From positions 2,547 through 66,546 of IMG/VR virus record IMGVR_UViG_3300028845_000223: a DNA stretch of 64,000 bases. One strand, 5' to 3'. This stretch comes from a virus. The position numbers and the translations under genes are program-made. Of the stretch, positions 56,392 through 58,792 are shown piece by piece (the first letter of the stretch is position 1; each line of letters begins with the position of its first letter). The notes under the pieces were generated by a model. That model was given only the letters and a program-made list of their open reading frames with translations. It was not told where the DNA came from and made no database searches.

Positions 56392-56804
56392 TGAAAACAA
56401 TTTTTAAATTTATAATAATTTTTTGTTTGGCAACGCTTTTCAATTTATTACTTGCCCTTTTTGGACACGTTTATTTTAGATTTGATGTTATTAATTCCTT
56501 TATCGCTTTGATATTATTGGAAATGGTTTTTTTGTTTTATCAAAAAGAAATGGAAACTGTATATCATGGAAAATAATTCAAAAGTAAAAGGATTATATCG
56601 GGTTATTTTTACAGAAAAGTCTACAAAGAAAAAAAACATTATTGATGTTTTTGCTGTTGATAAAACAATGGCAATAGACATTGCAAAAAACGAACTCTTT
56701 GACGGAACAGTTTTTATTGCAAAAGGTTCTAATCTTTCTGTTTCTGTTAAAGAATTAACAATCGACAAAGCTGATTAGTAAAATAAACAAAGGAACAAAA
56801 CACA

Positions 56805-57182
56805 ATGACTCACTAGGTAAAAAATAAACTATATGTCGTAACAAGAGAAGACCTTGGACTTCAATATCAAATTCCACAAGTGGCACACGCTGTGGCAGAA
56901 TTCGCACTAAGAAATAAAATAAAGTTTGAGGAATGGAATTCTGGTGGTTTGGGATCTTTGGTAGTTGTTGCCGCGAAAAACGAAGAACAACTATTTCAAT
57001 TTAAAGCAAAACTAGAAAAAGAAAATCAAATTTATTATGGATTCTATGAACCAGATATTGGTTATAGTTTGACTGCTTTAGCAATAGAACCATCGGATAA
57101 AGTAAAGAAACTTTGTTCGGGAATGCCTTTAGCGGGCAAACTTTCAAAAGAAACACTAAACCTAAAATTAATTTTGACATAG
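56805..57182 (+). CDS. Pth2-like peptidyl-tRNA hydrolase with in-frame TAG at codon 4
   Basis: AAGGA SD, then ATG ACT CAC TAG GTA...; KLYVVTREDL..QYQIPQVAHA, LVVV...E, F.EPDIG..LTALA..P. Confidence 0.75.
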
Positions 57183-57737
57183 TTGATAAAATGATGGAAA
57201 CAGAACAAGCAAAAGATGTTTCTATCCTTCAGCATGGATTACAAGTTTGTGATAAACTTTTTAATTTAATAATTCCTGCACTTAACTCTGATGTTACTGA
57301 AATCAAATTTCCTAATTGGTTTATCGAAAATAAAAGATTTATTCTTGAAAATCTTCCTTCTGAATATATTTTAAGAAAATATGCCATTTTTCATGATGTT
57401 GGAAAACCTTATTGTTTAGAGCACGACGAAGAAGGAAAAAGACATTTTCCAAATCATGCTGAATACTCTTTCCAAAAATATTTGGAGTTGTTTCCAAATG
57501 AAAAAGAGATAGCTGAGTTAATAAGAAACGATATGGTCGTTCATATTTTAAAAGATCATGGAGTTGAAAATTTTTCAAAATAAAAACTGTATAACTCATT
57601 TGGTTGTTGGTCTAGCTGAGATTTACGCTAATGCTGAAATGTTTGGTGGGGTCGAGTCGGAATCTTTTAAGATCAAGTATAAGCAGCTCGAACGAAGAGG
57701 TGGTGCAATTATCTCTGTGCTAAAGCAGAAGAGATAA
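57113..57737 (+). CDS. HD-domain protein, frameshifted near 57575-57583
   Basis: SILQHG, FHDVGK, HFPNHA; the +1 frame continues with LAEIYANAEMFGG...SFKIKYKQ. Confidence 0.65.
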
Positions 57738-57741
57738 CGCG

Positions 57742-57770
57742 TTGACAGCTTCGCGGAGGTTGCTTACACT
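57742..57770 (+). promoter_or_regulatory. Sigma70-type promoter whose predicted +1 is the first base of the suppressor tRNA
   Basis: TTGACA-17 nt-TACACT; tRNA G1 is 7 nt downstream. Confidence 0.8.
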
Positions 57771-57776
57771 TCTCGC

Positions 57777-57848
57777 GTTTCGCTAGTTCAGCGGTAGAAC
57801 GGCGGGCTCTAAACCTGCAAGTCATAGGTTCGATTCCTATGCGGAGCA
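57777..57848 (+). tRNA. Amber suppressor tRNA (CUA anticodon)
   Basis: GTTTCGC/GCGGAGC acceptor, GTTC-AGCGGTA-GAAC, GCGGG-CTCTAAA-CCTGC, ATAGG-TTCGATT-CCTAT, A73. Confidence 0.9.
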
Positions 57849-57877
57849 CAAACAAAAACATAAAAAGGAAAACAAGA

Positions 57878-58792
57878 ATGCAAACAAGACTCTTCTGTGG
57901 TTTGGCGATTGCTGTGTTGGCTGCCGCGTGTGAAACAGTATCTCCTGGGGAAGTTGCCGTTTTAGTTGATACTGGAACAGTTAAAGGCGTATATCCTCCA
58001 GGACTTTATTACGATGGCCCAATGATGGAATTTCACAAACTTTCAACGAGAGCTCAATCATTTGATATGATTGGTGCCCCAACTCAAAATCAAAACCATG
58101 AACGTTCTGGTGAAGGTACTGTTACTGTTTTAACTCGGGACCAATTAAGTGTTGGTCTCGATTGCACGGTTCAATTTCACTTAAACAGCGACCACGCCTT
58201 ACCTGTGTTTATTAAGTTTGGCGAAAACTATGCACAAACAGTTGTTCACACTCCTGTCAGAGCTGCGGTAAGGGATAGCGCAGGTAGGTTTAACGCTCTC
58301 GATCTTTCAAACCGAAGAGAAGAGTTACAACAAACCCTCGAATTAGAAATTCGAAATAAGATTCATACACTGTTGTCTCAGCAAAGAGTTTCAACAAATG
58401 CGATCATCTTGGATTCTGTTTTGATTCGAAATATTGATCTACCAAATTCTCTCGATGAAAGTATTGTGGCATTGCAGCGAGAAAGAATGCAAACGCAACA
58501 GAGACAACAAGCTGCCTTAACCGCGCAGCAAGATGCTGTGCGGCAAATGGCAGACATTCGAGGACAATCAGAACGAAATATTTTAGCAGCGGAAACTGCC
58601 GCTAGAACAAGACGAATCGAATCAGAATCTATTGCCGCGGCAAACAGAACAATTGCCGCTTCACTTACTCCAGAACTTTTGCGTCTTCGAGCAATCGAGG
58701 CACAAAAAGAAGTCTTGGGAAGTAATCAGACTCGAACGGTATTTATGCCTCCAAATATGTCACTTTTCAACCTTGGAAATATCCAACAATAA
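57878..58792 (+). CDS. SPFH/prohibitin (band 7) family lipoprotein
   Basis: LAAAC lipobox, V.PGEVAV, T.DQLSV.LD..VQF, C-terminal coiled coil. Confidence 0.85.
   Translation: MQTRLFCGLAIAVLAAACETVSPGEVAVLVDTGTVKGVYPPGLYYDGPMMEFHKLSTRAQSFDMIGAPTQNQNHERSGEGTVTVLTRDQLSVGLDCTVQFHLNSDHALPVFIKFGENYAQTVVHTPVRAAVRDSAGRFNALDLSNRREELQQTLELEIRNKIHTLLSQQRVSTNAIILDSVLIRNIDLPNSLDESIVALQRERMQTQQRQQAALTAQQDAVRQMADIRGQSERNILAAETAARTRRIESESIAAANRTIAASLTPELLRLRAIEAQKEVLGSNQTRTVFMPPNMSLFNLGNIQQ

Follow-up and report, generated by a model that had tools for sequence, protein, structure and literature searches.

How can a gene that carries a stop codon as its fourth codon give rise to a complete protein? The question is raised by a 64,000-nucleotide (nt) stretch of virus DNA, positions 2,547 to 66,546 of the IMG/VR record IMGVR_UViG_3300028845_000223 (hereafter the window), in which a gene related to the peptidyl-tRNA hydrolase Pth2 opens with ATG ACT CAC and an in-frame TAG, and the first strand of the fold is encoded directly after the stop. 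A tRNA gene with the anticodon CUA, which reads UAG, lies ~600 nt downstream on the same strand. On the comparisons given below, translation of this putative tRNA-3′-end hydrolase probably depends on the phage suppressor tRNA(CUA) reading the UAG at codon 4.

The leader stop, the Pth2-like gene and the tRNA(CUA)

The start of the gene was read directly, and every detail of the anatomy described in the first-pass annotation (a Shine-Dalgarno motif followed by ATG ACT CAC TAG) was confirmed. The Shine-Dalgarno-like AAGGA is separated by a 10-nt gap from ATG ACT CAC TAG GTA AAA AAT AAA CTA TAT GTC GTA ACA AGA, giving the leader string MTH#VKNKLYVV (where # is the stop); coordinates are collected in Table 1. 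We give the AAGGA little weight because such a motif precedes only 64 of the 213 long open reading frames (ORFs) of the record, against 27 at a control position. The ATG at 56805 and the TAG at 56814-16 share the frame of the ORF called under the standard code (56880..57182), which starts at GTG 56880 and ends with a TAG at 57180-82. The reading frame is constant across the leader TAG which, as had been noted, lies outside any homopolymer. There is no ATG, GTG or TTG between the TAG and GTG 56880, and no near-cognate start between the TAG and strand 1; the earliest near-cognate codon 3′ of the TAG is an ATT at residue 23.

The first-pass annotation had placed the first Pth2-like strand directly after the TAG, with no ATG before it, and had held that a start at GTG 56880 would delete that strand. 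Both statements agree with an AlphaFold (AF2) model made with 150 homologs (predicted local distance difference test score, pLDDT, 93.6), in which strand 1 spans residues 8-14 and helix 1 residues 19-36. GTG 56880 is residue 26, and a start there would lose strand 1 and half of helix 1, including Q22 and Q25, which are near-invariant in the family together with H28, D84 and T90.

The assignment to the Pth2 fold has several supports. Residues 8-101 match Pfam PTH2 (PF01981) over profile positions 2-106 of 115 with 29.9 bits (cut-off 23), and the family profile matches solved archaeal Pth2 structures with an E-value of 2e-8. Foldseek aligned the window-gene model to solved Pth2 structures (1q7s, 2zv3 and 3erj) with E 4e-7 and template modelling (TM) scores of 0.67-0.76, with further matches to 1wn2 and 1xty. 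The VIA comparisons with Pth2 structures gave Z 13.9-14.8 and a root mean square deviation of 2.0-2.2 over 102-107 residues. Scores with the NCBIfam equivalog models for Pth2 were far under their cut-offs (25.4 vs 126; 17.1 vs 82). The catalytic residues of Pth2 are reportedly, from work on the Sulfolobus solfataricus enzyme, the Lys of a GK motif and the Asp of DAG; in an alignment to 1rzw/3erj, Tyr21 occupies the position of the Lys and Glu82 (in E-P-D) that of the Asp. The phage protein therefore resembles archaeal and eukaryotic Pth2 (PF01981; 3erj, 2zv3, 1wn2, 1xty, 1q7s) in its fold (Z 14-14.8), in a Pfam score over the cut-off and in the shared Q..H-A and T motifs, and differs in these two substitutions and in a frequent fusion to an HD-motif, CC-adding-enzyme-like domain.

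ARAGORN found 17 tRNA genes in the window. Sixteen are on the minus strand in a main cluster and only the tRNA(CUA), which folds into a canonical cloverleaf, is on the plus strand, starting 972 nt after the leader ATG and 595 nt after the end of the Pth2 ORF of the window strain. Strain variants at 57748, 57752 and 57755 fall in the spacer of a promoter-like sequence directly 5′ of the tRNA and leave its hexamers unchanged. At 57778 (tRNA position 2), two of the sequencing runs with related strains (X5 and X13) have C for T, which converts a U2.G71 wobble into a C2-G71 Watson-Crick pair. Comparison with the nearest canonical tRNAs among 245 phage tRNAs gave no consistent answer for the isotype of the suppressor tRNA. 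Glutamine at the TAG, as it appears in homologous proteins (MKHQV, MNHQV), was ruled out as evidence for the inserted residue, the Q being the gene caller's code 15 translation of TAG. An initiator-like tRNA that would start translation at the UAG itself was also ruled out: G1-C72 is paired, the anticodon stem is without the three G-C pairs, and an in-frame ATG is conserved 5′ of the stop.

Conservation of the leader stop with a cognate suppressor tRNA

A conserved early TAG, with or without a CUA tRNA, was what the first-pass annotation had suggested looking for in homologs. We gathered 76 loci from viral contigs and 82 from metagenomes and genome bins, plus cultured-phage records, and sorted all of them with one script anchored on a hidden Markov model of the family; clustering at 90% identity gave 68 + 54 = 122 clusters. 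Suppressor tRNAs were sought in the flanks of the loci (4 kb). Counting a gene as gated where an ATG and 1-9 sense codons are followed by an in-frame stop before strand 1, gated genes were present in 44 of the 68 and 40 of the 54 clusters, hence in 84 of 122, and a chance origin of the TAG is excluded because so many clusters share the feature. The gate is TAG in 75 clusters, TGA in 6 and TAA in 3. It is conserved across phages sharing merely 27-50% protein identity, usually at codon 3-5 and most often 2-5 codons ahead of the strand-1 Lys. The Met-Thr-His leader of the window recurs in loci L026/L029, L042 and L056 and in Serratia phage BF.

The stop and the tRNA covary. A suppressor tRNA was present in the flank of 60 gated clusters and was cognate to the leader stop in all 60 (54 TAG with CUA, 3 TGA with UCA and 3 TAA with UUA). 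The match of stop and anticodon has a Fisher p of 1.3e-7 even with locus L172 counted as a mismatch. That mismatch (a TAA leader beside a tRNA-CUA) is an artefact: an AGGAGG and a GTG start follow the TAA, and the gene has an internal TAG. The tRNA is nearly always on the same strand as the gene, the exception being L004/L005, where a UCA tRNA is on the opposite strand. In eight further clusters an internal TAG replaces the leader TAG, and at least five of these have a tRNA-CUA in the flank. The suppressor tRNAs are very diverse in sequence and have only the anticodon loop in common. At their far ends, TAG-gated genes terminate in TAA (20), TGA (17) or TAG (2).

The codon after the stop is also biased. 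In 79 of 85 clusters a purine follows the stop; in Escherichia coli a purine in this position favours suppression over termination. The following residue is Ile or Val in 63 of the 85, through different codons including GTA and GTT, and therefore this codon appears to be constrained as protein.

In database entries the gene is commonly shortened. The two closest database proteins were called from downstream starts, while in their DNA strand 1 is preceded by an in-frame TAG that stands a few codons after an ATG; in one case a tRNA(CUA) follows 59 nt 3′ of the gene's stop. The same arrangement occurs in cultured phages. Serratia phage BF (L080, 286083-286358) has the leader MTH#, an unannotated gene and a tRNA(CUA) 3.3 kb downstream. 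In Ralstonia phage RsoM2USA the gene (ML#, in ML#ISDK) is again unannotated, and the genome paper reports one tRNA(CUA) (PMC8504454). Acinetobacter phage ME3 (MT#) has a tRNA(CUA) 450 nt upstream, and Mycobacteriophage Cane17 (M#), annotated from a GTG after the stop, has one 250 nt downstream. Yersinia phage fHe-Yen9-04 (MSH#, unannotated), Cronobacter phage GAP32 (MAQ#) and Tenacibaculum phage pT24 (MK#) showed no tRNA(CUA) within the 3.3-kb stretch examined. The annotated coding sequences of GAP32, ME3 and pT24 are truncated; they use a downstream start and lose strand 1.

Other searches gave a narrower picture. No near-identical DNA was found in the phage collection, and a single-protein pattern scan of viral contigs found nothing. 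For pattern searches an alignment of 7 sequences served, one of 24 sequences being too diverse. A general pattern of ATG, up to five codons, TAG and a long open frame was not in excess in the loci outside Pth2-like genes (23 cases on the plus and 22 on the minus strand). A few of these cases are real, comprising paralogs and a second gene family.

The second family is a small gene (VFHFNK.H..DP.IPMWV) beside the Pth2-like gene that opens with ATG, 1-5 codons and TAG at L027:4343, L038:3612 and L077:3313; it also occurs in L073 near 3294, where it again opens with a leader stop. More than one gene can thus be gated in the cassette. The motif was not found in the record to which the window belongs. 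The paralogs are long fused Pth2-like genes with a leader TAG of their own (L009:1715, MT#INHKL; L042:3205, MTH#ISNNEKL), ~0.8 kb 5′ of the first copy. ARAGORN also reported tRNA-like genes with two- or four-base anticodons ('gc', 'ga', 'ttag') near the cassette, at ~+1.6 kb in L012-L016/L019, at ~+0.6 kb in L033, L041, L043 and L074, and at L027:6363-6436. Among 185,579 species genomes, only two short contigs of metagenome-assembled genomes, one of a Paceibacteria (L201) and one of a Methanobacterium (L202), carried the gated gene and a tRNA(CUA); both are probably phage contigs binned with cells.

A longer fusion gene and its split in the window strain

Eight studies contain the phage, in data from wastewater, activated sludge, bioreactors and freshwater, and this bears on whether the TAG is real. 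The first-pass annotation had named sequence reads with a sense codon at this place as what would refute it, and independent contigs keep the TAG. Contigs from an independent wastewater study (X5) have zero differences from the window over 56715-57160, and strains that are ~2% diverged (X9, X10 and X13) have no change in the leader among the differences listed, 15 weaker ones lying outside that list. An independent activated-sludge assembly (L121), with 96% amino-acid identity, has the identical ATGACTCACTAGGTA leader. The TAG is not an assembly error. In the RNA-library run X10 the whole stretch stands on one contig, although contigs cannot show transcription.

These strains also show what the first-pass annotation had not seen: the window gene represents the leading third of a fusion gene that two frameshifts, from homopolymer indels, have split. 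Homologs of 293-331 amino acids (aa) are colinear with three window frames, 56826-57152, 57164-57574 and 57579-57722 (tblastn of P0006, P0009, P0022 and P0010). In sister strains one extra T in the run at 57171 joins the Pth2-like ORF to the next ORF, and two extra A in the run at 57576 connect that HD ORF with the final one. In L121 the whole is one 311-codon ORF, with the leader TAG as its sole in-frame stop and a tRNA(CUA) 3′ of it. The split form occurs in the window strain and, at the second site, in the main contigs of X5; at the first site (57171-57175) both forms coexist in that run. The sequence at 57180-57194, which ends the truncated ORF of the window strain, is read in a different frame in sister strains, inside the fusion ORF.

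A model of the intact fusion protein (P0156 type; pLDDT 93.8) has a Pth2 fold at residues 6-113 and a second domain with an HD motif at 118-311. The latter superposes best on residues 224-447 of a CC-adding enzyme (3wfr, 3wfq; Z 15.5); other HD proteins reached Z ≤11. The sequence signal for this domain is weak (HD, E 7.6e-5; tRNA_CCA_actino, E 0.01). Relative to class II CC-/CCA-adding enzymes (3wfo-3wfs), the body and tail domains superpose on fusion residues 118-311 with Z 15.1-15.5, 162-168 aligned residues and 19-21% identity, while the nucleotidyltransferase head is absent and the Pth2-like domain stands there instead. The tail domain of the CC-adding enzyme contacts the tRNA elbow (PMC4810234). 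On these models, the intact protein looks like a CCA-enzyme-type tRNA holder with a Pth2-like hydrolase replacing the polymerase head. A reversed order occurs in Xanthomonas phage XacN1 (L115; ORF364, 243756-244595), whose 280-aa protein has an HD/tail-like N-terminal part and a C-terminal Pth2-like domain.

Downstream of the tRNA, an SPFH/Band 7 gene with a lipoprotein-like N-terminus lies within 57839-58792. Its first ATG (57839) overlaps the tRNA, and ATG 57878 is the likelier start.

Table 1. Features of the Pth2-like gene and tRNA(CUA) locus, in window coordinates
Feature	Position	Strand	Basis and remarks
Promoter-like TTAACA-18-TAAAAT	56755..56784	+	Consensus scan 10/12, pattern match only; ~20 nt 5′ of leader ATG
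Shine-Dalgarno-like AAGGA	56790..56794	+	Direct read; 10 nt 5′ of ATG
Leader ATG ACT CAC (Met-Thr-His)	56805..56813	+	Direct read
In-frame TAG, codon 4, gate	56814..56816	+	Direct read; kept in sister strains and at the equivalent site of 75 TAG-leader clusters
Pth2-like domain, residues 5-125	56817..57179	+	Pfam, profile, AlphaFold model, Foldseek, VIA
T-run, T4 vs T5 in sister strains	57171..57175	+	Extra T behind 57171 in X9, X10 and part of X5; L121 reads through
Terminator TAG of the truncated ORF in the window strain, then TTG ATA AAA and a back-up TGA (57192-94) overlapping ATG 57191	57180..57194	+	Direct read
HD-motif domain ORF, middle third of ancestral fusion gene	57191..57583	+	Pfam HD E 2.6e-4; phrog_14850 E 1.6e-34; colinear with 293-331-aa homologs
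C-terminal third (tail) of ancestral fusion gene	57558..57737	+	tblastn of P0006, P0009, P0022, P0010
A-run, A4 vs A6 in sister strains	57576..57580	+	AA behind 57576 in X9, X10 and X13; L121 reads through
Promoter-like TTGACA-17-TACACT	57742..57770	+	Consensus scan 10/12; directly 5′ of tRNA
tRNA, anticodon CUA (reads UAG), class I, 73 nt, no encoded CCA	57777..57849	+	ARAGORN; Rfam tRNA 60.1 bits (gathering score 29)

Probable read-through of the leader stop, its alternatives and its meaning

We infer from these comparisons that the leader UAG is read through. Translation would start at ATG 56805 and would end after three residues at the UAG unless the tRNA(CUA) at 57777-57849 decodes it. 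The dose of Pth2-like hydrolase would then be proportional to the success of the tRNA(CUA) against release factor 1, and in the intact sister strains the product would be a 311-residue protein of the Pth2-like and the CC-adding-enzyme-like, tRNA-binding domain. Failure would be cheap because a stop at codon 3-5 yields merely a 2-4-residue peptide. The window has a leader stop before strand 1 with no start between the two, and a cognate same-strand tRNA within a few kb; gene and tRNA together are a conserved cassette of standard-code large phages. The first-pass annotation had proposed a switch in which hydrolase is made only on UAG read-through. The cognate tRNA downstream, the conservation of the early stop at low protein identity, the covariation of stop type with suppressor anticodon, and the lack in the window of any alternative start that could give a complete domain all support that proposal.

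Might TAG instead be a sense codon throughout the genome (code 15, as in crAss-like and Lak phages), with this gene one of many that are recoded? The record (203,914 bases, 32% G+C, CheckV completeness ~56%) does encode a tRNA(CUA), and TAG is a rare terminator of its 213 long ORFs (TAA 137, TGA 65, TAG 11). Some gene callers translate TAG as Q in homologs, and in a few related loci coding density rises by >10% with TAG taken as sense. Against this, ORFs of ≥100 aa under code 11 cover 86% of the record, and taking TAG as sense lengthens ORFs by ~5%, less than taking TGA or TAA does. When all 4254 TAGs in the record were put through a dicodon coding scan, only the one at 56814 was flanked by coding sequence both 5′ and 3′ without a start following it, and the scan thus gave no second interrupted gene in the 204 kb. 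In cultured carriers, annotation under code 11 reaches a normal density, and the median gain in coding density over related 8-kb loci is 0.04, a comparison that is noisy from tRNA arrays and small genes and gives weak support only. The many in-frame TAG genes and the low code-11 density of code 15 are absent; as far as the 204 kb show, this is a standard-code phage with one gated gene, and general recoding is very unlikely. Still less probable, to the point of being barely credible, is that the TAG marks the mutational inactivation of a dying gene. The downstream two thirds are out of frame in the window strain through the two homopolymer indels, as would suit decay, but L121 has an intact 311-codon ORF with the TAG as its sole stop, and 84 clusters, cultured phages among them, retain the stop at the equivalent place. 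Decay is contradicted for the TAG and is possible for the split downstream part of the window strain.

The 204-kb record has one PTH2 copy, and no release-factor genes were found in it. Two other ORFs of the window had been candidates for in-frame TAG genes and were not supported. In P0003 (50934-51839) an exonuclease domain ends exactly at the TAG. P0002 (13548-14678, minus strand) consists of two same-frame ORFs, 167 and 205 aa long, with a single TAG and three codons between them, and both sides score as coding; no family hit spans the halves, and an ATG stands 3 codons after the TAG. This region may be two genes or a second read-through target.

Several observations weigh against dependence of the hydrolase on the suppressor tRNA. 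About 25 clusters have a tRNA-CUA beside an ungated Pth2-like gene, therefore gating is not obligatory and the link between enzyme and tRNA is wider than the gate. In 24 gated clusters there is no suppressor in the flank examined, many of these contigs being short. Tyr in place of the 'GK' Lys and Glu82 in place of the 'DAG' Asp may mean that the substrate is not the one of classical Pth2. With two frameshifts splitting its fusion gene, the copy in the window strain may be impaired. Expression, charging and use of the tRNA(CUA) are predicted from sequence, and the record is little more than half complete. Finally, some relatives have a usable start after the stop: GTG in Cane17 (the annotators' start), TTG in L001 (five codons after the stop) and ATG in L037; and ATT, the commonest codon after the stop (39 of 85 clusters), is a weak start codon.

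Those starts would fit a reading in which ATG-x-x-TAG is a separate upstream ORF of two to four codons, with translation of the hydrolase beginning 3′ of the stop, either by re-initiation or from a codon other than AUG, and with the tRNA an incidental neighbour. In the window, the codons after the TAG (GTA AAA AAT AAA CTA TAT GTC GTA) are not known starts and strand 1 begins at the fourth, and in other clusters GTA, GTT, ACA, GGC, AGA, GAA, AAT and AAC follow the stop. Such a reading also predicts neither the match of stop and anticodon in 60 of 60 clusters nor the internal TAGs that replace leader TAGs in eight, and we consider it quite improbable. If read-through does occur, what would it serve? 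One answer is negative feedback, in which the suppressor tRNA itself is the substrate from which the hydrolase removes the amino acid or peptide, and the leader stop acts as a homeostat holding read-through at a low set level. Gene and tRNA are tightly linked on the same strand even in the ~25 ungated clusters, the fused domain resembles the part of a CC-adding enzyme that holds the acceptor/T arm and elbow of the tRNA, and with TAG ending 11 of 213 ORFs a high level of suppression ought to carry a cost. A deacylase of general activity would be toxic, however, and specificity for suppressors is hard to see where they share only the anticodon loop and where Pth2 and an elbow-binding domain have no obvious way of reading an anticodon; this answer is unlikely, if less so than the separate upstream ORF. 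We tentatively prefer a feed-forward arrangement because it is hard to see how Pth2 and an elbow-binding domain could pick out suppressor tRNAs as diverse as these: the enzyme would clean the 3′ ends of peptidyl- or blocked aminoacyl-tRNA accumulating on read-through, and the leader stop would match its dose to the level of suppression. This could well be mistaken, and it is a good deal less secure than the dependence on the tRNA itself.

Early in-frame stops are known from prfB, which encodes release factor 2 and is autoregulated through an early in-frame UGA that is escaped by a +1 frameshift, and which senses its own product. The phage gene is similar in that it too belongs to the translation apparatus and is interrupted early and in frame, by a stop that would sense termination against alternative decoding. 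It differs in that escape would use a dedicated tRNA in the same frame, with no prfB-type frameshift.

Another parallel is with recoded phages, in which phage-encoded suppressor tRNAs recode stops (TAG to Gln, 'code 15'; TGA to Trp, 'code 4'; bioRxiv 10.1101/2021.08.26.457843, PMC9523058). There too a stop in phage genes is read by a phage tRNA inside a host of standard code, and in-frame stops have been proposed to time translation. In recoded phages, in-frame stops occur in 26-71% of genes, mostly late and lysis genes, with a 'code change module' in the standard code. Here the genome is standard-code, and the gated gene is a single, translation-related one beside the tRNA, with its stop at codon 3-5. 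Borges et al. (bioRxiv 10.1101/2021.08.26.457843) make no mention of a hydrolase.

The tRNAs themselves resemble, in type and in the phages that carry them, the orphan suppressor tRNAs of standard-code jumbo phages (XacN1, RsoM2USA, Atu_ph07). For XacN1, two CUA tRNAs were reported with no identifiable target (PMC5852040), and the reports on RsoM2USA (PMC8504454) and Atu_ph07 (PMC6102473) only remark on stop-codon abundance; RsoM2USA itself carries the gated gene, unannotated. Iyer et al. (PMC7824862) placed PTH2 among the RNA-repair and ribosome-rescue genes of jumbo phages; the word 'suppressor' has 0 occurrences there, and neither a gate nor a link of PTH2 to suppressor tRNAs is described. 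We found no published description of an arrangement of PTH2 or peptidyl-tRNA hydrolase with a suppressor tRNA in a phage, in a search that left most subscription journals outside. New here are the count of TGA/UCA and TAA/UUA covariation, the genome-wide uniqueness of the TAG in the record, the fusion with a CC-adding-enzyme-like domain and the list of cultured carriers.

For annotation practice, callers using the standard code miss the gene and callers using code 15 write an unsupported Gln; gating explains the absence or truncation of the gene in jumbo-phage annotations. The cassette gives the 'suppressor' tRNAs of standard-code phages a conserved natural target, and would be a compact natural tRNA-dependent translational switch that comes in matched TAG/CUA, TGA/UCA and TAA/UUA versions and whose carriers are cultivable. 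It bears on how phages tolerate or use read-through and on the origin of stop-codon recoding. It is conceivable, though we hold this with more doubt than the feed-forward arrangement, that the stop-gated hydrolase makes up, with the suppressor tRNA, a self-contained and portable circuit for metering read-through, in which the gate follows the tRNA; such a circuit, rather than nonsense rescue or general recoding, might then chiefly account for the retention of 'orphan' suppressor tRNAs by standard-code large phages, and it could seed full recoding.

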